Shown: positions 9,294 to 47,490 of the stretch, one piece after another | How the letters are laid out: each line of letters begins with the position of its first letter | How positions within the stretch are numbered: the first letter of the stretch is position 1 | Assembly (NCBI GenBank): GCA_031409775.1 | Contig: JANNXY010000041.1 | Span: forward strand, 1 to 47,490 | Reading direction: 5' to 3' | DNA from: a bacterium | GTDB taxonomy: Bacteria; Patescibacteriota; Minisyncoccia; Phycocordibacterales; CAIZIN01 | Length of the DNA: 47,490 bases | Notes under the pieces: generated by a model | Seen by the model: the letters and a program-made list of their open reading frames with translations, nothing else | Databases searched by the model: none | Told to the model about the DNA's origin: nothing | Position numbers and translations under genes: made by a program

Positions 9294-12200
9294 ATGTTTG
9301 GCATGCCCGAAGGTATATCAAAACCAGCCTACCAAGAGATAGAATCTCCGCGATTGCTTACTCCCGAAGAGCTTGCAGCAAAGAAGCAGGAGATGTTTGA
9401 TCATATTTTGCAATCATATCCTAAACTGCAGCATTTAAGATTAAGTTTGATTGAAATGGTGGCAGAGCATTCGATAGACGATGCTTTGGTTTTGCTAGAA
9501 GAAGAAAGAAAGGTTCATGGATTTCATAAACATAGAGATTTTTTCTATACCATTCTTTGTACGGGCGCTATCAAGCATCATAAAGTACTTTTTGATAAAT
9601 TAAAAAATCGAGCAAGTGAGTTGCTGGATGAGTTCGGGCACGATGTCACAGAATTGGGTACACCGGGATTAAATGCTATTTGTGGTACAGTTGACCGAGT
9701 AAAAAATATAGTTTTTAGTCAGAGGTCAAGTGATGAACAAGAATATTTTGAAAAGCATATAAGTCCATACTATTCCGAACTTCTTCGTCAGAAAAAGATC
9801 AAACACATAGAAACGGAAATGCCGAAAATGACAGGAGAGGCAGAGCAAACTGATGCACAGGAGAAGGCTATAGAGCTCCTCGAGCAGATGTATCAGATGT
9901 CGCAGGGCAAGCAGAGACCGCTCGATGTGGTATTTGATATAAAGAAAAAAAGTGCAGAGAAAGGACTAAAGAGCGAAATTGCCGAAGCGATGGAAAAGGA
10001 AGTTTACAGTGATGTAGAGGTATTCTGGGATGAGGAAAGCGAAGAGTATAAGGTGAAAGGGAGGAAAGTGGGTAGTGAGAAGTTGGAAGTGGGTAGAAAA
10101 GAAGAAAAGAAAGAAGGGAAAGTGGATTGGGAAAAAGAGCCAAAGATGGAGGTGTGGCCAGGCATAACTAGAAAGATTTTGTTTAAAAGAGATGATAAAC
10201 CGTCTTTAAGGATGCGTGATCAACAAATTGTAGACTTTATAAACAGTAAAGAATATACAGTCATTGATAATGAGGTTTTGAGCAGGAAATTTGCAATGAA
10301 TATCTATGAATGGGTGTATAGTCCAAAAAAGGGTGAAAAAATCTCCCACCTCACCCTCGTCGGCGGCAAACCGGCGTATGTGGTGGAGGATACGAATGGT
10401 AAATTTAATAAGGTGATGGTTGGAGATAAGGAGATTGCTTCCGGTTCAGAATATAAATATGAACGACTATTTGATCTGAGAGGAAAAGTCGTTATTTCTG
10501 GCGTCAATCATTTATCGAGAGCCTTATCTTTTCCTTTTGGGGATGGTTTAATATATTTCGATCCCACACCTGAATCTGTAATTGATGTCCAGCCCTATGG
10601 CACCGATGACTTCGTGGCGGTGGGGTATCTCGATGGGAAGCCGGTTGCTTATACCAAGGACAAGAAATATGATTTGGAACCGAATATAGGGAAGATAAAA
10701 AAGTTAGAAACTAGCGGGATTCCTAAAGTTCTTTTCGAACATGGCTACCAGTTGCTTGATGGAAACCTAGGTTCAAATGATTGTTGCGATTTTTTCGAAA
10801 ACGGATCAGTTCAAACCAATGTAGATAACGCATATACAGTCTGGATGAATGGTAAAAAGCTTTGCAGAATCCCACAATCTGATTGGGAGTATCATTCTAT
10901 CAAAGTAATAGATGGAATTCCTTTTGTCACATTGATGCCTCGTGGTTTAGGAACCTATTTTGTGACTAGGTTGAATACTGATGATGGTGCAAAAAGCTTT
11001 GCAAAAAAACCTTCATTATCTTTCGATGGTGAGCCCCAAATCATCGAGCAGAATGACAAAGTGGTTTTCGCTGGAATGCAGAATGGGGTTTTCAAGACAT
11101 TTGAATGGACCCGCCCTTCATCTGCTGCCTCAGAAGTGGACGGGCAAGAAGCAAAAAAAGAAGAAAAAGGAGAAGGGGAGATATTGGACTGGAGCGATTT
11201 AACGCAAATAAACCAGCAGGTGGGAATAGACATTGCGGTCTTAGAATTGATAAAGAAACCTGACGCTGAAAAGATTTCGTTTTACTTAAATAATCTAGGT
11301 CGAAATCAAAACTTGAAAGAAAAAGCGAAAAATATTCTTTCTCGCAACCCATACATAGCCAAGATGATGACCGGGATGCTACAGCAAAAGCCAGAAATGT
11401 TTCTAGATACCATGACAGCTGTACCGGACAAGACTGACAGGATCTATGTGGATTATCTCTTGGGACTTCTAGTACCCGAACTCCACCAAGCCAAAATGAG
11501 GGAGAGGAATAGCTTGGGGAATAGTTTATATAGTACAAGAGCATATGAAAGAGAAAGCGCCCTCTCACATCTCGTTAGTAATGAGTATTCAGAGATAGCT
11601 GGTGGAGATCCAACGCACGGATTCGACAAAGAAATATTTAGAGTGAATGATAATTCTGGAGAAATTTATGCTACAGGGATTTATTGGAAATACAATCATG
11701 ATTCTGGCAGGTTCAGCAAAATGCCTATTAACTATGATAATACCAGAGTTGGATCTGCGACTGAAATTACAGCAGAAATTCCGATACCGAGCAATATGGC
11801 ACATACCATAAACCTACCACGTAGAATTGGCGCAAATGTGATCAGAGAAAGAGCAAAGATAATTTATACGGATGGTAAAGAAGAAAAGATAGATATAAAA
11901 ATAAACGAATATGGTGAAGACACTGCGAGGGTGGTATGGAAGCCTGGTATGAAGTCACTCGTCTATAGCCAGGAAGTTCCTGATGCTCCGTATATTCCAT
12001 CAGATATCACTGCAGTAGAATACCAGAGGGAAACAGAAGGTATGGACAAGGAACCGATAGTGGAGCTCGCTCCAGAGGACGAATATTTTGTAAAAAGTTT
12101 GGAGAAGATGACGCCCAGAGAGAAATTATATGCAATAGAATATTATGTACAAACTAATTCATATTATGATTTCAAAAATGGTGAAGTGATGCGGGAGAAG

Positions 12201-33790: not shown

Positions 33791-33824
33791 GATGCTATTG
33801 TATATTATTATACTGAAAAATACA

Positions 33825-33916
33825 CCCCACCCCCTAGCCCCCTCCCCGAAGGGAAGGGGGAATCGATGCATCTACTCTTCCTTTCGGGAAGGGTCGAGAC
33901 GAAGTCCGGGGATGGG
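33825..33916. repeat. REP-like palindromic element between divergent hisS and truB
   Basis: CCCCCTCCCCGAAGGGAAGGGGG and CTCTTCCTTTCGGGAAGGG hairpins; tail TCGAGACGAAGTCCGGGGATGGG resembles 4992-5015. Confidence 0.65.
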
Positions 33917-33935
33917 AGTATTGTATAATGAATTA

Positions 33936-34643
33936 ATGCCCATCATTTTCTACAAAAACCGGTTTGAAACCCCGCTCGAGTCGTTAAACAGGCTTCGTCT
34001 CGAGCGGCCCGAGCTCGCTACAGAGACGCTTTCGTACGCCGGTCGCCTAGACCCTATGGCCGAAGGTTTACTTTTGGTATTGGTAGGAGAAGATGAGAAC
34101 AGAGACAGACAGAAATACCTGCATTTATCTAAAACTTATGAAATCGAGATTTTATTTGGTCTCGAAACGGATACCTATGATTTGTTGGGAGTAGTAAAAA
34201 GCGCGAAAGAATTAAATACAGAATTTAGCAGAGAAAAAGCCCAATTAGAACTGAACAAATTTATCGGCGAGCATGAATTCCCATACCCGCGATTCTCTTC
34301 GAAAGTTTTTTCACTTCAGCCTACTGACGAAATCCCAACTCGTGTGATGAAAATCAATTCAATCAAATCTCTAGAATGGAACGAAGTAAAGGGCGATAAA
34401 GTAAAAGCAGAAATACTAGAAGCATGTGAAAAAGTAAAAGGCGATTTCAGGCAGGATCTGATTTTAAATTCCATAATAAATATTCCAAAAAATATTAGTT
34501 TTCAAATATTAAAATGCTCCGTGGCTTGCGAGTCTGGCGCGTACATGCGCACGCTCGCCCATGAGCTCGGTCAGAGGCTCGCAACTGGGGCGATAGCATA
34601 TAGGATCAAGAGGGTGCAAATTGGCGAGAATGTGCTAGTATAG
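33936..34643 (+). CDS. truB: tRNA pseudouridine synthase B-like protein
   Basis: YAGRLDPMAEGLL (catalytic Asp), KTYEIEILFGLETDTYD, CESGAYMRTLAHELG; ATG 33936 follows TGTATAAT. Confidence 0.85.
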   Translation: MPIIFYKNRFETPLESLNRLRLERPELATETLSYAGRLDPMAEGLLLVLVGEDENRDRQKYLHLSKTYEIEILFGLETDTYDLLGVVKSAKELNTEFSREKAQLELNKFIGEHEFPYPRFSSKVFSLQPTDEIPTRVMKINSIKSLEWNEVKGDKVKAEILEACEKVKGDFRQDLILNSIINIPKNISFQILKCSVACESGAYMRTLAHELGQRLATGAIAYRIKRVQIGENVLV

Positions 34644-34668
34644 TCGGCAGTAAAACAGTTCACCAAAT

Positions 34669-35139
34669 ATGAAAAGCCGAAATCTACTTGCAGTTTTTTC
34701 TTTAGTTTGCATTGCTTCTGTAGGATTTGTTATTTTTATCAATCCACATAAGTCTGATGCTGTGGCCACACCCCCACAGATTATCGACCGTGTTGTCAGA
34801 GTCGAGGTTCCGATGCCACCACGGATCCTAAACGAGATCCCGTACCCATCTGACCAGAGTGCCTATAGCTTCTATATCCATTCCAGGATCTGTGACAGAT
34901 TCGAGACGCCTCTGCCAGTCTACCAATATCTGATTGAAGATCTGAAAACCGGCATACATTACAGGCTCAATACCGATGAGCCCAACTGGCCTACCGGCAG
35001 GGTGATGAAGACTAGTATCACCACAGAATCCAATGACACCGAAACTAGATCCTACGCTATCGAAGACTACACTCATAGCATTATAACGCTCGCCAATCAT
35101 CGGAGGCGGTTTATGCCGCTTCCAGATTCTACGAACTGA
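34669..35139 (+). CDS. Hypothetical exported or membrane-anchored protein
   Basis: 156 aa with an N-terminal hydrophobic segment. Confidence 0.6.
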   Translation: MKSRNLLAVFSLVCIASVGFVIFINPHKSDAVATPPQIIDRVVRVEVPMPPRILNEIPYPSDQSAYSFYIHSRICDRFETPLPVYQYLIEDLKTGIHYRLNTDEPNWPTGRVMKTSITTESNDTETRSYAIEDYTHSIITLANHRRRFMPLPDSTN

Positions 35140-35174
35140 AATGTTCGTTTTTATATAATTAACTGTGGATTAAT

Positions 35175-35251
35175 TGCTGAGGGTAGTGACTGAAGTTATA
35201 ACCTATTTTAAGACTACAAATAAGCACCACTACATCCCGAACTTTGCTTAA
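35175..35251 (+). other. Candidate left att junction carrying the displaced 3' end of the recombinase gene
   Basis: TGCTG core, then an open frame RVVTEVITYFKTTNKHHYIPNFA-stop in the register of the recombinase CTG codon; its stop overlaps that of the convergent AlbA_2 gene. Confidence 0.6.
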
Positions 35252-36441
35252 AACGTTGCCAAATCACCATTTTCATCATATCCGTAGGAACGACTAGATC
35301 CTGAAGCATTCCACACCATATCAAAGACAGGTCTCAATGCTTTCGCTACATCCTCATCTGAGTCGCTCAGAATAACCTCCGGCAGATAGATGTCATTTTC
35401 AATAATTGGATCATGATCCAATATCCTATTAGGAATGTTTGACTTGATTACATAACCCTGAATCCCCGTTAGTGTGATGAAAACAAAATACGGAGGTTCA
35501 ATCTCTAGGAGTTTTAATAAAGTGACGTTTGCTTTTACGAAGTCAATCAGCTTCCTTTCTACAGCAACCATTGGGATACCCTTTTCAACATCATCGCTTC
35601 CGTAAGCAGATCGCGGGGCAACCATAAGAGAATCAAAGCCTTCAATAGCTCCATTCCTAAAGATTTGGGTATAGCTAGTCGTTTTGCCATTATTAAAAGA
35701 ATACGCACAGACGCCATCTAAGTTGATTCGCTTATTCCAGCCAGAGGCATACAGAGGTCGAAATTCAATCCGCGACTCATTAAGGTCAGCAAGTTGCTTA
35801 CTGGTTATCTGGCTAGAATTAAGTACGCCTGAAAGCGGCACTATGTGGACCGTAAGAAAATTATCGACATTTTCTAACCTAACCGGACCACTATTCGCTT
35901 TGAGATCGAACACTCGCTTTTTACGAAAGTCTTTTATGGTGTCGATTAAGTTACCGTGCGCCCCAAAGGCGGTCTTCAGTTCAGACACATCCATCTCGTA
36001 TTTTCCGTTACTGTTTCGCTTAAAGAAGCGATTCGAGTTCTTAAAAATAACTCTGTGGGGACTATTCAAATTTGGCTTGACTCTAATTACCAGAATACTC
36101 TTCTTATCATCCACTGCTATTACATGAATGTTGCTGTCTATTCTAGGAGATATTCCATCTCGTATAACGTTTTCAATTCGTTGTAGCTCTGTATCAATAT
36201 TGGGTACTTCAATACCGTATTCTTGTTTGATTTCTTTCTTGTCTTCTAGCACCCCAAAGACTAAATCCCCACCGTCAGTGTTAGCGAGCGATGACAGGTC
36301 TGCTAAAAATTCCTTTTTATCGTCATCGCTATTTCCAGGAAGAGCCGACTTGTATTCCAGAGTTTTACCCTCAAGAACCTGGTTATCAACCAGTTGCTGG
36401 ATATCATCCTTTGTTATTTCAGATAGTTTCTTTTGAATCAT
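35248..36441 (-). CDS. AlbA_2 (Schlafen-like) domain protein
   Basis: EGKTLEYKS...FLADLSSLANTDGGDLVFGV...SPH...FFKR. Confidence 0.85.
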   Translation of the reverse strand: MIQKKLSEITKDDIQQLVDNQVLEGKTLEYKSALPGNSDDDKKEFLADLSSLANTDGGDLVFGVLEDKKEIKQEYGIEVPNIDTELQRIENVIRDGISPRIDSNIHVIAVDDKKSILVIRVKPNLNSPHRVIFKNSNRFFKRNSNGKYEMDVSELKTAFGAHGNLIDTIKDFRKKRVFDLKANSGPVRLENVDNFLTVHIVPLSGVLNSSQITSKQLADLNESRIEFRPLYASGWNKRINLDGVCAYSFNNGKTTSYTQIFRNGAIEGFDSLMVAPRSAYGSDDVEKGIPMVAVERKLIDFVKANVTLLKLLEIEPPYFVFITLTGIQGYVIKSNIPNRILDHDPIIENDIYLPEVILSDSDEDVAKALRPVFDMVWNASGSSRSYGYDENGDLATF

Positions 36442-38257
36442 GGTCTATGTTTCCTTTACCGCCCTTCTTGGACACCAAAAACTCGTGAACTTTCTCAAAG
36501 TTAGCGAGAGTTTCCTTGCTTAGCTCAATCTTTTTACGCTCAAAGAGTAGTGTCTGAATCGCTTTATTAAATCTCTCCTTACCAAACACTTTATTCTGAT
36601 CGTAATCTTCGAGAATCTTTTCCTTGTCACCATCAGTAAACAAAGACTCTGTGGTCTTTCCATCAAAGGCGATGTCGCAATCCTTGAGTGTGAAAACTCT
36701 GTCTGAAGCCAGAATTCCTAGCTCGTCAGTGTATTTCTTTTTCCCTTTTTGACCTGCAACATCTGAGTCCTCCATTACAGTAATATCTTTACCCCACGAA
36801 AGATAAAGCCTGATCACTTGGTCATTCTTTCCCGCTCCACCTCCTGGGTACAAATTCAAAGTATCCGTCTTTCCTAGAATCACTTCGAATAGATACTTAA
36901 AAGAATAGAAATCATTTTTACCCTCAACAATCGTTAGGCTCGGCACTAACTCCAACTTGCTAGGCTGATAATCCAATCTATCCAAAATTGGCTGGAAGTA
37001 TGACTGCTGGTTCGGTGAACTTTGAATAAACTGTCTGTAAGGCGAGGCTACGATATCTGTCTTTGTAAGTTCAGCCTCTGCCTCATTGTCATAATCGATT
37101 GCATTGTTTTTCACAATGTAAGCGGCTTCAAGCCACTCTGGGTTAATAAGATGGTGACTGTGTGTAGTGTAAAAAAGCTTACTTTTCTCAGAAATTGAAC
37201 TGAAGCTCTCAAGAAGTTTCTTTTGAGCTGTTGAGTGAAGATTTGACGCTGGCTCATCAAGCAAGAAGAGAATCTCACCACGTTCAGTTGATCTGTTTTT
37301 TCTGAACTCAGTAAAAATCAGGTACGCAAAGAACCATCGGAAGCCTAGACTTCTTTCAGAAATCTCATACTCGTCCGAACCGTGCTTCACTTTAATCTGT
37401 AAGTAATATTTCTTTACAGCAGGATTCTGAACACTCTCTTCCACTCCAGTTCGTGCAGTTATTTCAAGTTTCTTTTTACCAGGGAAAATCTTATGCCAAG
37501 AATTTGAGATAGTCTCAGTGATTTTTGACTCCATTTGTCTCAAGGTACTTTCAAGAGACTCTCTCTGTTCTTCGTCAGTACTCTTAATTCTATTTAAGAT
37601 GTGATCTTCAAGGTAATAATCGGGGTCAATAGTGTCCAGTATGTCTTGCAATACATCCCTGTAGGTTTCTTGTCGGCTAGACTCACCAGTGTATTCCTCG
37701 AGATATATTTTTGACGGAAAATCAAACAAAAAGTTTGGGTAGTAAATAATTGGCGGGATCAGAGTATTTTTAAGATGTTTTAACAATTCAACATAAGCAG
37801 GGTCTGTCTCAGAAAGCGGAGAATCTTTTTTTGCCTTCGAACCCTTAGGTTTTCCATAAATACTGAAGACCAATGATTCAGTCTTAGTTTGGAAACTTGA
37901 GCCTTGGAAGCTATACGCTTTTCCAATTACCAAGGTCTCGGGGATCACATTCGCGGTATATCCTTTCTTTGTTAAAAAAGCACCTATATCTTTAATATCA
38001 GCTTCATCCAAAGTTAGGGTTGCCTCAATAGAAACTTTCTCGTTAAAAATACCCTTCTTGTTTTTTGGTATCAGAGTATGTTCTTTGCCCGATGGTTGGT
38101 CTGTCTCCAGGAAATTAATAGCATCGAGAATGGTTGTCTTGCCACTCTCGTTCAAACCTACAAAAGTAAAAACCTTTGCGTTGGGAGTTTTTGAAAGATC
38201 CAGTTCAAGATGCTTAATACCCTTGTAGTTCTTTATTACAAATTTTGAGTATTTCAT
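36419..38257 (-). CDS. OLD-like ABC/AAA ATPase with TOPRIM nuclease domain
   Basis: IKNYKGI, Walker A GLNESGKTT, SLGFRWFF, LLDEPASNLH, TTHS, TOPRIM IVEGKND...EDSD. Confidence 0.85.
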   Translation of the reverse strand: MKYSKFVIKNYKGIKHLELDLSKTPNAKVFTFVGLNESGKTTILDAINFLETDQPSGKEHTLIPKNKKGIFNEKVSIEATLTLDEADIKDIGAFLTKKGYTANVIPETLVIGKAYSFQGSSFQTKTESLVFSIYGKPKGSKAKKDSPLSETDPAYVELLKHLKNTLIPPIIYYPNFLFDFPSKIYLEEYTGESSRQETYRDVLQDILDTIDPDYYLEDHILNRIKSTDEEQRESLESTLRQMESKITETISNSWHKIFPGKKKLEITARTGVEESVQNPAVKKYYLQIKVKHGSDEYEISERSLGFRWFFAYLIFTEFRKNRSTERGEILFLLDEPASNLHSTAQKKLLESFSSISEKSKLFYTTHSHHLINPEWLEAAYIVKNNAIDYDNEAEAELTKTDIVASPYRQFIQSSPNQQSYFQPILDRLDYQPSKLELVPSLTIVEGKNDFYSFKYLFEVILGKTDTLNLYPGGGAGKNDQVIRLYLSWGKDITVMEDSDVAGQKGKKKYTDELGILASDRVFTLKDCDIAFDGKTTESLFTDGDKEKILEDYDQNKVFGKERFNKAIQTLLFERKKIELSKETLANFEKVHEFLVSKKGGKGNIDHDSKETI

Positions 38258-40872
38258 AGGCTTATCGTTGAACTGAATTGCTGGTAATTCTCTACCTCTT
38301 TGTAGTTGACCTGAATCACTTCAAAGTGTTTCTTGGCTGATTCAATCTTTGCTTTTTCAGTAGGACGCAGGTTGTTTACATCACCCTTAGTTTCAATCAC
38401 AAAGTAGACCTTTTCGCTCTCTACTCCCTGCAAGTCGCGCTTTACTGTGACAATAGCCCAGTCCGGATTGTAACCACCTACAGGAGTTTCAACCTTGTAC
38501 CAGTTCGGCATCTTGATAAAGAGTTTTATGCGCTCATCTTGCTCGAGGTTTAATGCAAAGTTCTTTTCAACGTCTGAGTCATGAACGATTGCATCGTAGA
38601 TAGACCGAGTGACCAGCAAAGCAGAGTCCTCATAACTCTCAATATCTTTGAAGTCTTCAGTCTTGTATGAATCAGGAATAACCTCGTAGCTTACTTGCTC
38701 GACATAGGTCTTTACGAGTTCTTGTTTGATGATTTTGCTTGCCTCAACTACAAACCGATCAGGGTTATTGTAGAAAGCTTCCCAGTTATTTGCCGCAAGG
38801 ACAATTTCAGCGATTGTGGACCGCGTAAGTCGGGTATGTGCCTTGATTTCAGAGATGCAGTCGATCGTTCGAGCTTGTCTTGCCCCCGTGTCGCCCGTTT
38901 CAGCCCCCAGGACCAGAGATGTGATGCCTTCCGCAGAGATGTTGATACCTGCGCGTTCAATGCGAATGTGAGGCTTTTGTAGCCGAATCGCAGATATAGC
39001 CTTTGACGCATTGGTTACCAGTGATTCTGTATCCACCTTTACGAGGTAGCGAGTCTTCTTTGAAATGCGGTCCCATAGCTCCTTAAAGTTCTCGTCTTTT
39101 TGGAATCCAGGTTTGAGCGCAATCTTGCTTCGCTGTTTTGCGTTGTGTGGAAGCTGAGGAGTTTTGTAGATACCGTCCTCCTGGAACTCTGCCTGCAGAC
39201 TGGCGACGTAATCCGCATAGCTGATGTTCGCCACCACTGAGAGCAGGTTAATTCGTCTATCGAAAATACGGTCACCTTCTTGGTTTACACAAAGGCGCAT
39301 ACCACGACCAATCTCCTGACGCTTCTTCATCGATGACGTAGTCTCATTCAAAGTACAGATATTGAACACGTTCGGATTATCCCAACCCTCACGGAGTGCT
39401 GAGTGAGAAAAGATAAACTCAGTGGGTTCAGAGAATGACAAAAGACGTTCCTTGTCTTTCATAATCAGTTCGTATGCCTCGTCATTCTTTTCAATAGCTG
39501 ATTCCTGTTCTACTAAACTTCCATCCTTTCGCTTGGCGAAGTATCCAGTATGAAGTGAATCAAGGGATTGTTGCGCCGGAGCAAAAGCATCTTTTACTTT
39601 AATTAGTTCCTCGATAAAGATTTGTCTGATCAGACCATCCTCACTCGCATAGTTAGCAACCTTATCAATAAAGAAAAGGCTGAGGACTTTAATATCAGAA
39701 TCCTTGTGCTTTTGTTTCTTCTCGACATGAAGCCTGATTGTCTCAGCGATTTGTCGTCGCCAAATATCTTCCTTGTTTTGATTGATGGCTGTTGCTCGAG
39801 AGAGAATAAAACCATTCATAAAATGCACCTTACCCTCAGAACCAAACTCCGGTGCGTCAGCATCGATGTTTGAAACTACATACCCCTCATAAGCTTTGTT
39901 ACCAGTGACAGCGACAAGGTCGTCACCTCTTTTTACATTTGTCGCTTTTACCTTTCGATTGCCCTCACCATCCATAAAAGCGAGTTCCACCTTTGCTTTG
40001 ATGCCACTAGCGGTCTTAGCTGGCTTAGCTTCAGCAAAAGTCATGTACGGCACTGAAGTACCGCTCTCATCGTCGGTAACGGAGAATACCTCAATCTTTT
40101 TTACAAGCCCGAGCTGATACGCATCGTATGGAGTGAGTTGATAAACAAGGTTGTATGGATTCTTGTGGGTAGCAGAATAGCGCAATCGGAATAGCGAATT
40201 AAAGTTCTCGAGGGCTTTCTTAGTAGCTTCACCCTCCATGTTTTGTGGTTCGTCGAGAATCAGAATGGGATTAGTCTTCTTGATGAAGTCCATCGGTTGC
40301 TCACCCTGCATCTGATCACGCGCACCGTAGAGAACGTTAGCGTCTTTGTTGAAAGCACCAACCGTCATGACCATGATATTGATCACGCTACTGTCTGCAA
40401 AATGTCGTACCTGGGAGATATTCTTTGACTGATACTCGTAGTAGCGAAAAGGAGTGTTGGCGTACAGCTCCTTAAAGTGGTCCTCGGTAATTTTGAGCGT
40501 TTTAATAACACCCTCACGAATAGCAACAGACGGGACCAGGATGATGAACTTCTTCCAGCCGTACTTTTGATTAAGCTCAAAGACAGTTCGCAGATAGACG
40601 TAGGTCTTACCTGTACCAGTCTCCATCTCAACCGACAAATCCATTTCATTACAAGGCTCACATACAACCTCGTTGTTACCCTGTACCTTTTTGATGTTTA
40701 CCTGAATCTCATCATCAGAGAGCGTGAGGATGTTTGGATAGATACCAAACAAACCCAAACCACTACCAGTAACAGTTTGCGCTGTGGTTTTCTCTTGACC
40801 CTCAAAACAGTCAATCACTGATTTGATTGCTTGAAGTTGGAAGTCTTGGTTAGCGTCAAACTTAAATTTCAT
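38254..40872 (-). CDS. res: Type III restriction enzyme, Res subunit
   Basis: EMETGTGKT, ILDEPQN, RYSATH, SALREGWDNPNVF, QEIGRGMR, C-terminal YNPDW...IETK. Confidence 0.95.
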   Translation of the reverse strand: MKFKFDANQDFQLQAIKSVIDCFEGQEKTTAQTVTGSGLGLFGIYPNILTLSDDEIQVNIKKVQGNNEVVCEPCNEMDLSVEMETGTGKTYVYLRTVFELNQKYGWKKFIILVPSVAIREGVIKTLKITEDHFKELYANTPFRYYEYQSKNISQVRHFADSSVINIMVMTVGAFNKDANVLYGARDQMQGEQPMDFIKKTNPILILDEPQNMEGEATKKALENFNSLFRLRYSATHKNPYNLVYQLTPYDAYQLGLVKKIEVFSVTDDESGTSVPYMTFAEAKPAKTASGIKAKVELAFMDGEGNRKVKATNVKRGDDLVAVTGNKAYEGYVVSNIDADAPEFGSEGKVHFMNGFILSRATAINQNKEDIWRRQIAETIRLHVEKKQKHKDSDIKVLSLFFIDKVANYASEDGLIRQIFIEELIKVKDAFAPAQQSLDSLHTGYFAKRKDGSLVEQESAIEKNDEAYELIMKDKERLLSFSEPTEFIFSHSALREGWDNPNVFNICTLNETTSSMKKRQEIGRGMRLCVNQEGDRIFDRRINLLSVVANISYADYVASLQAEFQEDGIYKTPQLPHNAKQRSKIALKPGFQKDENFKELWDRISKKTRYLVKVDTESLVTNASKAISAIRLQKPHIRIERAGINISAEGITSLVLGAETGDTGARQARTIDCISEIKAHTRLTRSTIAEIVLAANNWEAFYNNPDRFVVEASKIIKQELVKTYVEQVSYEVIPDSYKTEDFKDIESYEDSALLVTRSIYDAIVHDSDVEKNFALNLEQDERIKLFIKMPNWYKVETPVGGYNPDWAIVTVKRDLQGVESEKVYFVIETKGDVNNLRPTEKAKIESAKKHFEVIQVNYKEVENYQQFSSTISL

Positions 40873-40877
40873 AATGG

Positions 40878-42752
40878 TTAAATGGTTTTGAGGTCGAGGT
40901 TCAATGCGAGGTTGGCGGCGGTCGTATCATCAAGGCTACTCTCAAGACAGATAAAGATTCGGTCTTTGTGCTCCTTGTCGGTCAATTCTTTAACTGTCTC
41001 TGATGCGAGCTTATCTTCAAGACAAATGAGTAACTGCTGTTCACCATCAACCACCTGATACGCATTGTTTTTACCGACAGTAACCTTTGTTACTTTGCTG
41101 TTTAGTGACAAACCTTCTTTAACGATATTCTCGTATACCAAGCTCATGTCATCGCTTTCATCAAACAGTTTCTTTTGCTTTGCCTTTTGCAGATACCCAA
41201 CGAACTCATTTTGATTTTCCTCTGGTGACTTTTCAGGATCAAGGACAAAATTATTTTCAGGGTAGTTTGACTCAGCAAGAGTAAACAACTTAAAGCCAGA
41301 ATCAACTGGAGGATGTTCGCCATAACCATTAATAACTCGACGAATACGCTCTTTTGAAAGTTCTGCAATATTCTCTTTTTTTCCTATACTTTTCAAGAAA
41401 TTCAAAGCACCGACCTGATCCTTATTATCTGGATTCAATGCTTCAGGCAACTGAACTAAAATAAATTTAGCTTTTACTTCTACATCGGCAAGGTAATTAA
41501 TCACGGCATGACCGGTACTACTAGAACCTGCAAAGAAATCCAGAATTATTTCACCACTTTTAACGTTTGCAACCGAAATAAGGTTCTCGATCAATTTTGT
41601 TGGTTTTGGATTATCAAACAAATCTTTTTGTCCAAATATTTCCGCCAACTCAGTGGTCCCATCCTGGTTTGAACCAAACTGTTCATGGCTCCACCAATTA
41701 GTAGCTGACTGCCCCTCTTGTTCTCTTTCATGTTTGAAATATTTTTTTCTTGGGGAACCTTTTCCCTTACTTGGAAAAATGATGCGGTTATCGGCAAGAA
41801 GTGCCTCGAAGTTTCCTTGCTCACCCATCCAGTCTTCATCATATTCAACACCAGTTGGAGTCGTGATTACATATCTTGAACCAGATTGTCCTGAGCCAAC
41901 TTTCCACGGCTTACTTGCCCAATCTCCTCTTGGATCATTATCTGGATTTGAAAATGTACCAGTTAGACCTACTTTTCCAACGCCATAATTTTTTAAGGCA
42001 ACTGAATCTTTTGCGTAAACAATAATATGCTCGCCAACCAAACCAATCATCTTGGTCGCATCATTTGGCTGGTTATGTCTACGTCTCCAATGAATATGTC
42101 CCTGAAAGTTTTCACCTCCAAAGACCTCATCCATTACCATTCGCAAATGATGGACTTCATTGTCGTCAATCGATACAAAAATTACACCATCCTCACTCAG
42201 TAGATTCCAGGCAAGCTTGAGGCGTGGATACATCATTGAAAGCCAGTCACTATGGTAGCGACCATTGGTTTCCTTGTTTGTGGTAGTACTATCACCATCA
42301 CCGTTCTTTTGACCAGTTTGCTTGAGATAGTTATCAAGCGGCGCACTGAAGTCGTCGTTGTATACAAAGTCATGACCTGTGTTGTATGGCGGATCGATGT
42401 AAATCATCTTCACTTTTTCAAAGTAAGCCTTTTGCAAAAGCTTCAACACTTCCAGGTTATCTCCCTCGATGAAAAGATTCTCAGATTCATCCCATTTAAT
42501 ACTCTCTCCAGGAACTGGATTCAAAGTGAGGTGACTAGGGATCAATACATTCTTGATTGCATTACTCTTGCCAGCCCAAGAAAAAGAAAACTTATCGCCC
42601 CCTTGCACAATGGAGTCGCCTAGAACTGTTCGGAGTTTATCGAAATCAATCTTATTCTCAGCAAAAGCTTCAGGCAAAATGCGATACAGCTCGATGAGCT
42701 TTTCTTCAGAGAGATTTGAGGATGTGAGATTTACTTTTTGTGGGTTTTTCAT
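40878..42752 (-). CDS. mod: Type III restriction-modification methyltransferase, Mod subunit
   Basis: IEGDNLEVLK, IYIDPPYNTG, PKPTKLI, LDFFAGSSSTGHAV; directly upstream of res. Confidence 0.95.
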   Translation of the reverse strand: MKNPQKVNLTSSNLSEEKLIELYRILPEAFAENKIDFDKLRTVLGDSIVQGGDKFSFSWAGKSNAIKNVLIPSHLTLNPVPGESIKWDESENLFIEGDNLEVLKLLQKAYFEKVKMIYIDPPYNTGHDFVYNDDFSAPLDNYLKQTGQKNGDGDSTTTNKETNGRYHSDWLSMMYPRLKLAWNLLSEDGVIFVSIDDNEVHHLRMVMDEVFGGENFQGHIHWRRRHNQPNDATKMIGLVGEHIIVYAKDSVALKNYGVGKVGLTGTFSNPDNDPRGDWASKPWKVGSGQSGSRYVITTPTGVEYDEDWMGEQGNFEALLADNRIIFPSKGKGSPRKKYFKHEREQEGQSATNWWSHEQFGSNQDGTTELAEIFGQKDLFDNPKPTKLIENLISVANVKSGEIILDFFAGSSSTGHAVINYLADVEVKAKFILVQLPEALNPDNKDQVGALNFLKSIGKKENIAELSKERIRRVINGYGEHPPVDSGFKLFTLAESNYPENNFVLDPEKSPEENQNEFVGYLQKAKQKKLFDESDDMSLVYENIVKEGLSLNSKVTKVTVGKNNAYQVVDGEQQLLICLEDKLASETVKELTDKEHKDRIFICLESSLDDTTAANLALNLDLKTI

Positions 42753-42756
42753 AAAA

Positions 42757-42951
42757 TTATTTCTTTTTCTTGGTCACCTTTACGTTTGAGGTCTGTTGCA
42801 AAAATAGTTGCAAGTCGGTGTCCTCGATTCTCCAGTAACCAACCTTCGATGCCTTCAACTTGCCATCATGAATGTACCGGAAGACAGACCGTTCACTCAC
42901 ACGTAAAGCTTCTGCTACTTCTTTAACGCTGAGAAGTTTATTATTTGTCAT
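42757..42951 (-). CDS. Excisionase-like helix-turn-helix protein
   Basis: LLSVKEVAEALRVSERSVFRYIHDGKLKASKVG.WRI; first gene of the mod-res operon. Confidence 0.88.
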   Translation of the reverse strand: MTNNKLLSVKEVAEALRVSERSVFRYIHDGKLKASKVGYWRIEDTDLQLFLQQTSNVKVTKKKK

Positions 42952-43019
42952 AACTCATTTTTACTCTCTCACATTTTACTCCCTCCAAAACAGGGTGTCA
43001 AAGTGTGTCAAGATGTTTC

Positions 43020-43048
43020 TTGCTGTGATAATACGGTCGGTGTATAAT
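43020..43048 (+). promoter_or_regulatory. Sigma-70 promoter
   Basis: TTGCTG-17 nt-TATAAT; predicted +1 near 43055 coincides with the first base of a long stem. Confidence 0.65.
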
Positions 43049-43054
43049 CATTTT

Positions 43055-43238
43055 GCTACCCACACAGTTTGTAATAACCCTAGACGGGCGAACGCCTTAT
43101 TTTTGAGTCACAGTTGTGACCAGAGAAGGGCAGTTTGCGCCTGCCACAACTACTGTCGCCCGAAAGGGTTACAGACTATGTGGGTAGCCAGGTCAGGCTG
43201 CCCCTTTCTTGTATCTGGGCAACCATATAACCGACCTG
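43055..43238 (+). ncRNA. Candidate structured RNA or 5' leader (rod plus second hairpin)
   Basis: GCTACCCACACAGTTTGTAA pairs with TTACAGACTATGTGGGTAGC; inner stems AACCCT/AGGGTT, GGGCGA/TCGCCC, AGTTGTG/CACAACT; then CAGGTC..TGCCC/GGGCA..GACCTG. Confidence 0.55.
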
Positions 43239-43262
43239 AATTATTAAATTTAGGAAAAATAT

Positions 43263-43358
43263 ATGGAACTATTTGATATCGTCATCAAAGTTGTCGGCAT
43301 AATTTTGTTAGCCGTAATTGCGTATTGTGTCTGGAGTAATTGGTACTACGGATCTTAG
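43263..43358 (+). CDS. 31-aa single-TM peptide (not in the ORF track)
   Basis: AGGA before ATG; MELFDIVIKVVGIILLAVIAYCVWSNWYYGS-stop. Confidence 0.5.
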   Translation: MELFDIVIKVVGIILLAVIAYCVWSNWYYGS

Positions 43359-43416
43359 AGTTATTTGCTCCGGCGCAATATTCGATAAGTGCAGTCGAAA
43401 AGAGTAAAATTATCAA

Positions 43417-44247
43417 ATGGATGTCACCAAAAAGCCTACAATTAGGCAAGTTGCTCTTGGCGCAAGAAAAATAATCGACCGCCTCGATCGCAAAAGAATT
43501 GACGCTAAGCGTTTGATGTTTTTACTCAACGAGACTGATTTTTTTGATGATATTTCCAAAGCTCGTGAACATTTTAATACTCCAAACCTCATCCGTAAGG
43601 ATGACATAAACAAAGGTGAATCTCAGACTATCGAGCTTCCCCACAGAGTAGGTATCAATTCAAAATATCTTGCGTCACTTACCGCAAAACAGCGAGATAA
43701 TATCGAGAAATATATCTACAAGAACGTATTGCAGAAATGGAACCTAAACTTTAATTTTTACACCTACATTGAGTGGTATTTTCTGTACAAAAGAAAAGTG
43801 GCGGCTGACTTTGTACTTGTACCAAACCCCCACATGTATTTCCTATACAAGAAGTATCCACAGGAATACTTACGCAATAGCCATACGACCAGTGATATCA
43901 ATTTCATGATGCAACAAGTGCGCTTGTACTGTGGCTTTTACGCACCAAAAGACAGTGACGGTCTCTTGCAAGACATCAAGACAATCATGTCCGTAAACAA
44001 GAATAAGGAACGTGGTTCAACGGATTTGAAGAAGTATGCAGATGATAACGTAAGCTTACTTGCACTAGGTACTGAGTGTTACGGCTCGAACTTCAAAACC
44101 ACCACAAGGTACATAGCGACTGACAAGTTAGAGCGTGAAATTAATCCAGATTTGGTAACAGAAAAGATGGTGGAGACTGAAAGAGAGCGACTGAAAAAAC
44201 GTTTGCAGAGACTTAAAATCAAACACCTCACAGGTCTGAAAAAATAG
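43417..44247 (+). CDS. Hypothetical protein
   Basis: 276-aa ORF with a basic C-terminus; no recognised motif. Confidence 0.65.
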   Translation: MDVTKKPTIRQVALGARKIIDRLDRKRIDAKRLMFLLNETDFFDDISKAREHFNTPNLIRKDDINKGESQTIELPHRVGINSKYLASLTAKQRDNIEKYIYKNVLQKWNLNFNFYTYIEWYFLYKRKVAADFVLVPNPHMYFLYKKYPQEYLRNSHTTSDINFMMQQVRLYCGFYAPKDSDGLLQDIKTIMSVNKNKERGSTDLKKYADDNVSLLALGTECYGSNFKTTTRYIATDKLEREINPDLVTEKMVETERERLKKRLQRLKIKHLTGLKK

Positions 44248-44277
44248 TGTCCCCAGCACTATTCCCAGTTCTTAGAT

Positions 44278-44307
44278 AATAGCCTCAATAGAAATATTGA
44301 GGCTATT
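44278..44307 (+). terminator. Perfect hairpin, probable terminator
   Basis: AATAGCCTCAATA-gaaa-TATTGAGGCTATT. Confidence 0.55.
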
Positions 44308-44739
44308 GCTTTGATATTTCTATGGATGTCAAACCTGTTCCTCTTCTGAGGCGGTTGGTGACATCCAAACCGTTCTCGGGGGTGGAACAGGTTTTGTTTT
44401 TAAGAAGCTCCTCTGGTGGAAAGGTTGGCGAATCCATGAGCCTCCACTGGTTGCCAAATTAAATCATGGAAAGGGTGATTACGTGCCATACGGGGATGTT
44501 GTCGCCATCTATCAATATCGTTTTGCTTAAAGGTTTCTGGCGATATTGGGATTACCGGACTGAGGGTAGCGAAAATCAAGTCAGGCTCACAAAAGCAAAC
44601 CTTGTAGCTAATGGAGGTCTGAGAGTGGAAACCCAGGGGACTCCGAGAGAAAACGGAATCAAGTCTCTAGCAAAAAGCAGTCTTACTGACGGCTAAGGGC
44701 TCCCCCGTGCAACCAGGGATGTTGTCGACGAACAAACAC

Positions 44740-44934
44740 ATGATAAGCAATCAAGCATTACAAGAGTTCAAAACAATCTACGAAAGAGAGATTGGACCAG
44801 CCCCAGACGAAAAAGTCTTAGTCGGTTTTGCTTGTGACTTGTTGACGCTCATGGATGTAACTTACCGCCCAATCAAAAAAGAGTGGGCAGAAAAAACAGA
44901 AAATGAAAACTCTACTGACAAAAAGCGCGTATGA
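44740..44934 (+). CDS. Small hypothetical protein of the integrative element
   Basis: MISNQALQEFKTIYEREIG...LLTLMDVTYRPIKKEW; helical, upstream of the recombinase. Confidence 0.65.
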   Translation: MISNQALQEFKTIYEREIGPAPDEKVLVGFACDLLTLMDVTYRPIKKEWAEKTENENSTDKKRV

Positions 44935-45199
44935 GACGGACGGGGACTTCGAGGAGCGGTTGTACCCCTTACTTCACGGTAGATATCGGGATGGAACGTT
45001 TGCTTTCGGGAACCCAGGTGGTCCAGGCAGACCACGTATCGACTTCCTTGGTCGCGCTGGGGTTAGGTTCAAAAGAAACATCGAGGAAATGCCGCCTGAA
45101 GTTCAAGAACTCATTCGACAAGCACAGGGAGGCAACTACTCTGCACTCCGCACAATAATCGATGCAATCAATAAGAAAATTGCGCCAGTGCAAAAATAA
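44903..45199 (+). CDS. Small hypothetical protein
   Basis: 98-aa ORF overlapping the previous gene; contains GTFAFGNPGGPGRP. Confidence 0.5.
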   Translation: MKTLLTKSAYETDGDFEERLYPLLHGRYRDGTFAFGNPGGPGRPRIDFLGRAGVRFKRNIEEMPPEVQELIRQAQGGNYSALRTIIDAINKKIAPVQK

Positions 45200-45286
45200 A
45201 CGGTGAAAATGGGTGATTTAACAAATTAACCCCTCAAACCAATAGACTTATCAGAGAAATTAAGGCTGTATGTAGTAACAAAATCT

Positions 45287-46966
45287 ATGCAAAACCCTGG
45301 AAACAAACCAATTAAATATATTAGTTACGCTCGCAAATCAAGTGAAGATAAAGAGCGACAAGTTGCTTCAATTGGTGACCAGGAAGAAGTTCTATCGGTT
45401 ATAGCTAAAAAAGCAGGACTAGACGTAGTAGACACTCTTAATGAAGCCCAATCAGCCAAGAAGCCAGGTCGACCGAAGTTCAACGAGATGGTGAACAGAA
45501 TATACAACGGAGAAGCTAACGGCATTCTTTGCTGGAAGCTTGACCGATTAGCCCGTAATCCAAGGGATGCTGGGACAATTAGCGCAATGTTGCAGGATGG
45601 AGTACTCCAGGTAATTAAAACAAACGAAAGAGAATACTACCCCACCGATAATATCCTCATGCTGACATTGGAACTGGGCATGGCGAATCAATACATCCGT
45701 GACTTGTCATCAAACGTAAAACGAGGTCTAGCAAAAAAAGTCCGTGACGGCTGGTACCCTAGTAAAGCACCTGTAGGGTATTTGAATAAAACTCATGACG
45801 ATGGAAGTCGTACAATAATCAACGATCCTGAGCGGTTTGAGTTAGTCAGGAGAGTGTGGGACATTGCCCTTACCGGAAACTTCACCGTCCCTCAGATTTG
45901 GGACAAGGCGCGAAATGAGTTAGCCCTAACAACACAAGTGAGAAGAAAAAGCGGTGGCAAACTCATTACTCGAAGTGCCATGTATTCTGTTCTCACGAAT
46001 CCCTTTTATTACGGTGTAATGAGATACCCTGAGAAAAGTGGCGAAATCCATCCAGCTAATCATAAAGCTATGATTACGGTCCAGGAGTTTGATCGTGTAC
46101 AGGAAATTATAGGTACACGAGCGGCGGCTCGTCCTAAGCGTGAAGTCTTTGCATTTACCGGACTGATGAAATGCGGTAATTGTGGATGTGCGATCACGGC
46201 TGAAAGTAAGGTTAAAAAGCAAAAGAACGGCAATATTCATTACTACACGTATTATCACTGTACTCATAAGAAAGTGAACTTCAAATGCGATGAAAGTGCT
46301 GTTGAGGTTAAAGACTTGGAGATCATGTTTGCAGAGAAACTCTCTGAACTCAAAATATCAGACGACTTCAAAGATTGGGCGATCAAACATCTGCACGAAA
46401 TACGGACTACAGAAGCTGACAGCAACAAAATCAGCATGAATACTGCTTCAAAGGAGTTACAGCGTGTCTCAGACCAAATACGAGAACTTACATTGAACTA
46501 TACCTCTGTTGAAAACAGCGACCGGCTGATAATGACTCAAGCTGAATACCTTGATTTCAAAAACGACTTACTCAAGAAAAAGGAATCAGCAGAAAGCAGA
46601 GTATCAAGTACATCAAAAGAATTAGAGTCCTGGATGGAATTAAGTGAAAAAACTTTTAACCTCGCCTACTACGCATCTGTTTGGTTTGAAAACGGGACCG
46701 ATGAAGAACGGAAAGCAATAATGTCCTGCCTTGGCTCGAACCTTACGATTAAAGACAAAAAAGTTCAGGTTTACCTACATCCTTTCTTAGAAACCTTTAT
46801 CCAAAACAAAAATGCCATCACCACAGAAATGGCTAAGGTTAGAACCTCTGAAAACTCAATGAATTCAAGGCTAATTGGTCAAAATGACACTCAATTGTCA
46901 ACAGTGCTGCGGGACTTGGACTCGAACCAAGATGAAACGCTTCAGAGGCGTCTATCCTACCATTAG
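45287..46966 (+). CDS. Large serine recombinase (resolvase, recombinase and Zn-ribbon domains)
   Basis: YARKSS (catalytic Ser), KLDRLARN, APVGY, LTNPFYYG, CGNCG...YYHC...C, coiled coil; last ~20 codons are antisense to tRNA-Gln. Confidence 0.95.
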   Translation: MQNPGNKPIKYISYARKSSEDKERQVASIGDQEEVLSVIAKKAGLDVVDTLNEAQSAKKPGRPKFNEMVNRIYNGEANGILCWKLDRLARNPRDAGTISAMLQDGVLQVIKTNEREYYPTDNILMLTLELGMANQYIRDLSSNVKRGLAKKVRDGWYPSKAPVGYLNKTHDDGSRTIINDPERFELVRRVWDIALTGNFTVPQIWDKARNELALTTQVRRKSGGKLITRSAMYSVLTNPFYYGVMRYPEKSGEIHPANHKAMITVQEFDRVQEIIGTRAAARPKREVFAFTGLMKCGNCGCAITAESKVKKQKNGNIHYYTYYHCTHKKVNFKCDESAVEVKDLEIMFAEKLSELKISDDFKDWAIKHLHEIRTTEADSNKISMNTASKELQRVSDQIRELTLNYTSVENSDRLIMTQAEYLDFKNDLLKKKESAESRVSSTSKELESWMELSEKTFNLAYYASVWFENGTDEERKAIMSCLGSNLTIKDKKVQVYLHPFLETFIQNKNAITTEMAKVRTSENSMNSRLIGQNDTQLSTVLRDLDSNQDETLQRRLSYH

Positions 46967-46977
46967 ATGATCCCGCA
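46907..46977 (-). tRNA. tRNA-Gln(CUG)
   Basis: Acceptor TGCGGGA/TCCCGCA, D arm, anticodon arm GACGC-ctCTGaa-GCGTT, T arm CTTGG-TTCGAGT-CCAAG; CCA not encoded. Confidence 0.95.
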
Positions 46978-47074
46978 ATATTTAACTGAATGCGTAATAT
47001 ATTACCTTAAAACCGCTAATTTTACCAGCGCCTATTTAGCTTTAATTACATCCATTTTCTGCTATAATCTGAAC

Positions 47075-47239
47075 ATGAAAAAACTTATCATGTGGAATGT
47101 GGTGACGCTCGATAATTGCTTCGAAGGGGAGAAGCCTTGGGATCTTTCTTTTCATGAGCTTGTCTTGGGACAAGAACTCGAATCAAAACCGCTTGCAAGT
47201 GGCGGGGTGATAATGAGGTATGGGGTCATTATACTATAA
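47075..47239 (+). pseudogene. Internally deleted dihydrofolate reductase/RibD-C family gene
   Basis: Family-like N-terminus MKKLIMWNVVTLD..FEG joined after ~35 aa to a family-like C-terminus KPLASGGVIMRY; only 54 aa. Confidence 0.65.
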
Positions 47240-47275
47240 AAAAACGGATGAGAAGACTGATTCTTCTCATCCGTT
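47238..47275 (-). terminator. Intrinsic terminator (minus strand, possibly bidirectional)
   Basis: AACGGATGAGAAGA-ctgat-TCTTCTCATCCGTT preceded by an A-run. Confidence 0.7.
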
Positions 47276-47361
47276 CGATGTTACTTCCTAGCCACATGAC
47301 TAGGATTGCTTGCGGGATCGTAGATTCGCATTTCTCTGTCCATGCAATAAGGCCCCTTCCA

Positions 47362-47490
47362 TTAATTACTAGCAACACCAACCCTCTGCGGTCTAATCGT
47401 ATAGTTCCATTCGGGATGGAACTCATCTCTTTGAATATTTAGCCGACTCATTTCTTCATCTGATACCTTGGTACCTGTTGGGTAGATATT
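47362..47490 (-). mobile_element. 3' end of an ISAzo13-family transposase gene (partial, runs off the window)
   Basis: Minus-strand frame not in the ORF track: NIYPTGTKVSDEEMSRLNIQRDEFHPEWNYTIRPQRVGVASN-stop; YPTG.KVSD and FH.EWNYTI.P match the ISAzo13 transposase C-terminus as I recall it. Confidence 0.8.

Follow-up and report, generated by a model that had tools for sequence, protein, structure and literature searches.

The window analysed here comprises positions 1-47,490 of contig JANNXY010000041.1 (assembly GCA_031409775.1), from a genome of 0.8 Mb (808 kb, 59 contigs) whose relatives among the recombinase matches are Patescibacteria. Near its right-hand end, a gene for a large serine recombinase (45287..46966, plus strand; 559 aa in its integrated form) runs into an intact tRNA-Gln(CTG) gene on the opposite strand (46906..46977, minus, by ARAGORN; Rfam RF00005 gives 46907-46977, 55.6 bits). 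The tip of the tRNA gene is overlapped by the pentamer TGCTG (46905..46909, plus), read from the sequence as the attR core, and the tRNA acceptor and T-arm would form the B' half-site. The left copy of TGCTG lies at 35175..35179 (plus) and can be read directly as the attL core, with the crossover placed in GCTG at 35176-35179. It is followed by 23 codons, RVVTEVITYFKTTNKHHYIPNFA, and a TAA (35180..35251, plus), which match a profile of recombinase tails and would be the orphaned native tail of the gene as well as the P' arm of the site. We consider it very probable that positions 35180-46909 constitute an integrative island of 11,730 bp that abuts the 3' tip of tRNA-Gln(CTG), with its attP inside the last codons of the recombinase gene.

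Judged by its sequence, the protein encoded at 45287..46966 is a large serine recombinase. Pfam searches revealed a Resolvase-type catalytic domain (PF00239, residues 12-155, E 1.2e-20), a Recombinase domain (PF07508, E 2.2e-08) and a zinc ribbon (Zn_ribbon_recom, PF13408, E 3.7e-09), and the PHROG match was an integrase (E 6.3e-68). In an alignment of 22 sequences (A1), S18, R16, R87 and R90 are invariant, as are C296, C299, C325 and C334 of the zinc ribbon. Sequence matches in the PDB include the catalytic domain of the TP901-1 integrase (3bvp) and a putative recombinase of a conjugative transposon (3g13). A long coiled coil is predicted within the zinc-ribbon domain, with helices at 359-406 and 418-469 in the window protein (P0001) and at 357-404 and 416-467 in its homologue P0051. 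Foldseek was run with the AlphaFold2 model of P0051 (62-row alignment, mean pLDDT 81) and not with that of the window protein, and it returned the SPbeta integrase (9y66_A, E 8.8e-22), Bxb1 (9iu2_A, 3.1e-16) and LI (4kis_C, 6.7e-13). No second Resolvase domain was found among the other open reading frames (ORFs) of the island.

At the right junction the recombinase reads ...STV-L(CTG, 46907-46909)-RDLDSNQDETLQRRLSYH-stop, and ARAGORN and Rfam both place this tail antisense to tRNA-Gln, as a preliminary description of the window had proposed. Codons 541-559 are antisense to the acceptor stem, the T-arm and beyond; residues 1-541 are the element's own, and residues 542-559 come from the antisense tRNA. 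At the left junction, TGCTG is indeed followed in register by RVVTEVITYFKTTNKHHYIPNFA and TAA (35249-35251), while the start given earlier, 35174, has to be corrected, since TGCTG occupies 35175-35179 and 35174 is the preceding T. The stop of the orphaned tail overlaps that of the convergent AlbA_2 gene (35248-35250). We searched 2110 six-frame fragments of the window with a profile made from the non-tRNA tails of 21 relatives (9 proteins and 12 loci), which contained no sequence of the window. The results showed a top match at 35174-35248 (14.3 bits, E 0.004), with the next match at E 2.7 or worse, and the same fragment also ranked first across the whole 808-kb genome. A spare, inverted attP is absent here: the profile has no second match in the window, and the longest inverted repeat measures 31 nt at 71%. 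The left-hand peptide is in frame and is thus homologous to the C-terminal ends of related recombinases whose genes run into no tRNA, whereas the preliminary description would have been contradicted by a peptide lacking such similarity. Its proposal that the integration site lies within the recombinase gene and that integration swaps the C-terminus is upheld by the profile match, the register and the recurrence of the arrangement at other tRNAs. The second-best match of the profile in the genome lies on contig C33 of the same genome (G000; minus strand, 8456-8382; IVDAARTYF, 11.3 bits), where the word reads AGA ACC TAC TTT; this peptide may be the orphaned tail of one of two paralogous elements described below.

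Searching upstream on the same strand for tail-like peptides with the profile yielded eight attL/attR pairs, including that of the window; the core of one of them, L094, was assigned by hand. The shared cores are 5-8 nt long and lie at the tRNA tip: TGCTG in the window and in L083, TTGGCTC in L023, TTGCGCGG in L087, TGGCTCCG in L046, TTTGCGG in L097, TTGTGC in L037 and GCACG in L094. The elements so delimited range from 3.8 to 11.7 kb, and joining each at its core places a motif-bearing tail in frame in 8/8, which would give circle-form proteins of 503-593 aa (564 aa in the window's case). Among the eight elements, the tails are more alike where the bodies are more alike (Spearman 0.50, permutation p 0.009), and L023, which has the same layout as the window, is 67% identical to it in the recombinase body and 65% in the orphaned tail. 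All eight cores overlap in four nucleotides, complementary to tRNA positions 74, 73, 72 and 71, and a G stands opposite position 74 at 45/45 junctions (48 minus three that the T-loop pattern did not match). From this common overlap the crossover in the window would fall within 46906-46909 / 35176-35179 and leave the tRNA intact. The short core at the boundary, already pointed out in the preliminary description, is thereby narrowed, through comparison with the cores of relatives, to a 4-nt interval within TGCTG.

We propose a mechanism in which the recombinase inserts the island by a crossover in GCTG, the complement of tRNA positions 74-71, and spares the tRNA. On the circle, the product of the gene would be 564 aa long and would close with a conserved tail, namely a helix across the crossover followed by a (Y/F)(I/M)P(N/D) motif. 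Upon insertion, the 23 tail codons would be stranded 11.7 kb away at the other end, and the gene would run 18 codons into the antisense tRNA.

The same arrangement is common among relatives. With one genome per species, at least 600 pattern matches were found in contigs, 574 of which encode relatives, and we examined the best 80 of these 574 loci. Three kinds of ending occur among the best 120 homologues: many have a conserved ...(W/G)L followed by R(G/D)QDSN(L/P)RP-type residues, which are the tRNA T-arm read antisense; many stop two or three residues past the conserved (W/G)L; and a minority carry tails such as PLVNDVITYFRTNPEYIYIYKPNENV (P0051). The reading frame ends in, or at most 10 nt from, an opposite-strand tRNA at 47 of the 80 loci and in a tmRNA gene at one (L044); ten have a native-type tail by profile, seven run off the contig, two stop at most 75 nt from a contig end, and 13 are of other kinds. 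The 47 tRNA junctions involve 16 anticodon species, Asn being the commonest (14). In L044, the frame ends inside an opposite-strand tmRNA gene (11558-11937), as in the Dehalococcoides ssrA islands. The genome of the window itself contains two further recombinase paralogues, 34% identical (G000 C23:285-1856 and C8:205-1794), the 3' ends of which overlap antisense tRNA-Ser(GCT) and tRNA-Val(GAC); contig starts truncate the two elements. In a tandem array from Bacteroidota (L099), a single recombinase is accompanied by four copies of the tail within 9 kb, and stacked elements may exchange tails. On viral contigs the best relative is 39% identical, and an examination of the first 21 of 80 such viral loci gave one native-type tail (L103), the others being other, shorter recombinase types.

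Three T-arm-like words near the junctions had been noted in the preliminary description, and we found them as placed: GGTTAGAACC at 46837-46846 within the recombinase gene (Box L, plus strand, 66 nt before the crossover), AGTTATAACC at 35194-35203 in the P' arm (Box R, plus strand, with the first A of AAC 21 nt past the core), and GACTCGAACC at 46919-46928 in the tRNA. In the tRNA half-sites of the resolved pairs, the T-loop word ...TCGAAC has its first A at 16 nt past the core (14 in two pairs), and the element's right half-site has a look-alike word at 21 nt (19), such as GTTCGAACC and GTTAGAACC, with GTTATAACC in the window. The offset between element and tRNA boxes is exactly 5 in 7/9 pairs by script, and also in L094 (15 versus 20), which was measured by hand from the core GCACG. 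In these right-hand half-sites the offset resembles that of the LI integrase, for which PMC3783163 places the zinc-ribbon motif 5 bp nearer the centre in attB than in attP. By this analogy, we infer that the boxes are the zinc-ribbon motif of this recombinase family: the zinc ribbon would read the universal T-arm word of the tRNA in the chromosomal half-site and a T-arm-like copy 5 bp further out in the element half-site. Reading of the T-arm would account for the range of targets among relatives, which comprises at least 16 different tRNA species as well as a tmRNA.

The boxes also constrain the codons that overlie them. Among profile matches of at least 9.1 bits, the Arg or Ile codon under the Box R word is CGA (13), AGA (5) or ATA (4) in 22/23, and the following Thr codon is ACC or ACT in 23/23, which by sequence comparison means that the first tail motif is held at the DNA level. 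Box L is the same word as the P' box (GTTMGAACCT) and lies 66-67 nt before the crossover in 21/45 junction loci. Its translation uses two reading frames, giving VRT in four of these loci and (F/L)E(P/L) in the other 17, and the codons are fixed. Fixed codons across two frames point to a constraint on DNA or RNA, and Box L may be an accessory binding site. The 12-40 nt before the crossover often consist of an A-run, a hairpin and a T-run, both in element arms (P arms of L023, L026, L027, L029, L048, L080, L085, L093, L094 and L097) and in native tRNA flanks (B arms of L023, L046, L087 and L094). In the P arm this hairpin region corresponds to a poorly conserved part of the protein that is predicted to be disordered, and the arm of the window has a weak AT-rich hairpin only. 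Such an element may supply its target tRNA with a substitute terminator.

Upstream of the recombinase lies o75 (44707..44934, plus strand; 75 aa, probable start M12), a conserved small protein with the motif YRPIKKEW. Homologues of o75 stand ~0.3-2.5 kb before the recombinase start in 11 of the 80 related loci, and o75 has no family match in Pfam, PHROG or PADLOC. When we predicted its complex with the zinc-ribbon/coiled-coil part of the recombinase, the score was 0.76 in three runs, against 0.08 for the best of three controls; the mark used for such scores is reached by 116/157 solved complexes and by 2/215 mismatched pairs. The runs had at least 92% of contacts in common, with a partner pLDDT of at least 74. 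The predicted interface comprises recombinase residues 358-373 and 448-483, which is the base of the coiled coil, and known directionality factors bind near the coiled-coil base according to PMC11722253. The model thus makes o75 a candidate recombination directionality factor, which excision would probably need. If its binding is real, the island would hold the usual module of integrase plus factor, and the tail swap would be at most a modulator.

Several observations weigh against the proposed island and mechanism. A ninth pair, L042, has no clear core. A mirrored copy of the box was looked for in the left (P) arm and not found, the B arms being too few to judge, so that symmetry of the site is not demonstrated. 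The complex score of o75 may owe to likeness with solved integrase-factor complexes. Three of the 13 loci of other kinds (L024, L030 and L032) are tandem arrays with a second recombinase and an abutting tRNA-Asn 8-10 kb downstream, and their native-like tails may stem from the neighbouring element. The attP and attB junctions, sought in accordance with the preliminary description, were not seen in the assembled contigs of four runs; no contig of these runs joined 35179 to 46909, and coverage of the island is even, at depths of 32 and 15.5 in the two runs that are the likely source. One contig of run X3 begins at 46907, the tRNA tip, at a depth of ~4, which is no more than a hint. A joint of 33863 to 47350 was set aside, having 22 letters on its short side and touching repeats. 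Terminal overlaps were found in 0/19 whole contigs tested, so that no native-tail copy is demonstrably a free circle. A comparison with relatives lacking the element, also suggested earlier, gave no syntenic empty site among the genomes compared. By DNA these relatives were too divergent, and only the tRNA itself matched; the left flank stood beside tRNA-Gln in none of the relatives compared; and by protein synteny the TruB-like and 331-aa neighbours are kept in three order-level relatives, with no tRNA beside them. A locus of the same genus (L007, G002:C6, 1471-1573) does have a near-identical tRNA-Gln(CTG), flanked as TTGCTG|CGGG, and 1.5 kb around it contain no recombinase. The agreement of this flank with the predicted attB comes down to a single discriminating base, and the locus is not syntenic, its neighbours being unrelated to the left flank of the window.

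These results bear on the possibility that the left TGCTG and its peptide are coincidental and that the true left end of the island lies elsewhere, as might be argued from a core of merely 5 nt (we roughly estimate that a 5-mer recurs by chance in a 108-nt spacer about 1 time in 10), from the absence of an empty site and from the GC profile, which has little contrast at the island borders and changes little at 35.2 kb. A profile match that is in register, has no equal in the window and leads the ranking for the genome is hard to reconcile with coincidence, and so is the 65% identical orphaned tail in the same layout in L023. In addition, the only two GTTMKAACY sites of the 47.5-kb window flank both junctions, even if their count is not above chance (4 strand-matches versus 2.65 expected). 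We regard a coincidence as highly improbable.

Whether the tail matters to the protein is less clear-cut. The swap could be a by-product of packing, in which the gene runs through the T-arm-like box of the right half-site and neither tail matters to the enzyme. We give this explanation an appreciable chance, if one below even. The fixed codons of the first tail motif favour it: the DNA constraint alone suffices there, and the group to which the window belongs has Ile in place of Arg, which also counts against a role of the peptide. Tail lengths vary as well, from 17 to 32 aa in native tails and from 1 to 37 residues in the integrated ones, the latter being arbitrary, so that, if the elements excise, catalysis as such can proceed without the tail. 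Disorder is predicted for the segment that precedes the crossover, and McMurdie et al. (PMC3146451) held a coding role of the ssrA-antisense part to be unlikely. The second tail motif, (Y/F)(I/M/F)P(N/D/K/S), behaves differently. Its spacing is fixed at 36 nt in 7/8 loci while synonymous sites vary, its Pro codon being CCG, CCA or CCT, and in the window it lies 52-63 nt past the crossover. This is outside the usual half-site (~25 bp in known enzymes) and points to selection on the peptide. A by-product also sits poorly with orphaned tails that are open and in frame in all eight cases, and with a helix predicted across the crossover: in the model of P0051, which has a native tail, residues 515-535 are disordered and are followed by a helix at 536-551 (block pLDDT 72, moderate). 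The integrated form was modelled less well (69.6, from a 22-row alignment) and all of its residues 514-559 have pLDDT <50, so the two tails are not fairly comparable.

At the other extreme, the swap could itself be the directionality switch, with the native tail performing only attP x attB, the swapped tail performing attL x attR, and no separate factor involved. Conservation of the design across phyla would fit, and the extreme C-terminus of SPbeta SprA reportedly affects directionality, going by the title of Abe et al. 2021; the latter also speaks against a by-product of packing. Against it stand the conserved small neighbour o75, predicted to bind where directionality factors bind, and the arbitrary integrated tails, which suit loss of function better than a specific gain. 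With a candidate factor in the island the swap need not be a switch; the directionality or stability switch raised in the preliminary description is a hypothesis, and we think the factor-free explanation clearly unlikely. Between the two lies a reading in which the free circle encodes an enzyme that is competent for integration and has the native tail, and loss of this tail upon insertion would alter activity or the response to the directionality factor. Such a state-dependent regulatory role of the tail is a tentative suggestion. In the model that we put forward, itself somewhat doubtful, the structure of the gene reports the integration state: the helix and YIPN tail present only on the circle would act at the coiled-coil base, the site of action of directionality factors and of SprA's extreme C-terminal element, and favour integration or blunt o75, and the inserted form could be switched to excision by o75.

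Between the left core and the recombinase gene, the minus strand of the island carries a block of defence genes as cargo. They encode a 397-aa protein with a Schlafen/AlbA_2 domain (35248..36441; PF04326, E 4.5e-18), a 612-aa ABC-type ATPase of the AAA_15 family, like AriA, OLD and GajA (36419..38257; PF13175, E 1.1e-22; PADLOC AriA, E 2e-25), the type III restriction enzyme Res of 872 aa (38254..40872; PADLOC REase_III, E 3.3e-235, with ResIII and RE_endonuc domains) and the type III methyltransferase Mod of 624 aa (40878..42752; PADLOC MTase_III, E 1.2e-171). On the plus strand follow three ORFs of 134, 276 and 76 aa without a Pfam, PHROG or PADLOC match (42872..44696), the first two of which have homologues in the L023 element. 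Beyond o75 lies an ORF of 98 aa and no known family (44903..45199, plus), with a homologue only in L023. For the island's small ORFs, Pfam gave nothing usable even at E values up to 5. Outside the island, the last ~140 nt of the window (47348-47490) occur as 99-100% identical copies on seven other contigs, each at a contig end, and reach ~18 times the island depth in run X1; this repeat is multi-copy and breaks the assembly. The start of the TruB-like ORF (33820-33921) resembles contigs C53 (79%) and C23 (95% over 37 nt), and the contig graphs of runs X1 and X2 break there.

The significance of the locus lies in providing a well-supported case and family-wide counts for a design that has been mentioned briefly for the Dehalococcoides tmRNA islands and for Mx8, the latter with a tyrosine enzyme. 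Relatives are encoded at 574 or more loci of species-representative genomes, and most of the best 80 lie at tRNA tips, many of them in Patescibacteria, which are ultra-small. The T-arm box and its offset of 5 bp would amount to a rule, open to testing, by which a single enzyme family locates many different tRNAs, and it is of practical interest because serine integrases are tools of genome engineering. Tails read antisense from tRNAs (of the DSN(L/P)RP type) mark attR, and attL can be recognized by the short orphan peptides at the opposite ends, so that exact island boundaries can be found without long repeats. If state reporting and T-arm mimicry are both true, the family would be a large and barely described clade of serine integrases able to use almost any tRNA gene. 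The preliminary description had remarked that tRNA targeting is more typical of tyrosine integrases, in agreement with the Islander paper (2014), according to which no integrase of the serine family was known to use tRNA genes as targets. Our literature search, in a collection with few subscription journals, found no paper on a tRNA-targeting clade of serine integrases that swaps a conserved tail or mimics the T-arm in attP.

Among characterized systems, the ssrA islands of Dehalococcoides and their serine integrase DsiB (McMurdie et al. 2011, PMC3146451) are close in several features. DsiB is likewise, by description, a serine recombinase of ~540 aa at the island edge, its gene overlaps the att site at the 3' end with the stop outside the island, and the islands occur in tandem, as they do in relatives here. 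The authors suggested that DsiB may be fully functional only on the circle or beside an island that supplies the 3' fragment (PMC3146451). In contrast, DsiB targets the tmRNA gene ssrA with a ~20-bp direct repeat, whereas the target here is tRNA-Gln(CTG) with a 5-nt core. DsiB is accompanied there by a co-transcribed small serine recombinase, DsiA, in a six-gene integration module, and no second recombinase is present here. The paper also reports divergent C-termini, with no conserved tail.

In phage Mx8 (IntP/IntX), PMC6070905 places attP within the integrase coding sequence, where integration gives a new 3' end and the altered integrase is still active with changed properties. The recombinase here resembles it in having attP in the integrase gene and a recombinant 3' end. 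Mx8 Int is a tyrosine recombinase of a phage and the enzyme here is a serine recombinase, hence not a member of the Mx8 type. In Mx8 the replaced part is said to be much longer, and the target is reportedly a tRNA-Asp locus. Protein properties also depend on the integration state in mycobacteriophage integration-dependent immunity (Broussard and Hatfull, PMC3694055). A state-dependent protein is the point of likeness, and no degradation tag was identified here. In the mycobacteriophage system attP reportedly lies in the repressor gene, the integrase is said to be a tyrosine enzyme, and the effect is said to be the loss of a degradation tag. The integrases of LI/A118, SPbeta (SprA), phiC31 and Bxb1 share their domain set and fold with the recombinase here. 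These phage-type large serine integrases reportedly have attP outside the integrase gene and target protein-coding genes or intergenic sites. Unlike them, the recombinase here has a tRNA acceptor and T-arm as its chromosomal half-site, and the box stands only in right-hand half-sites. Taken together, the design is known in print only in outline, and the T-arm offset rule, the candidate directionality factor and Box L are what this locus and its relatives add to it.

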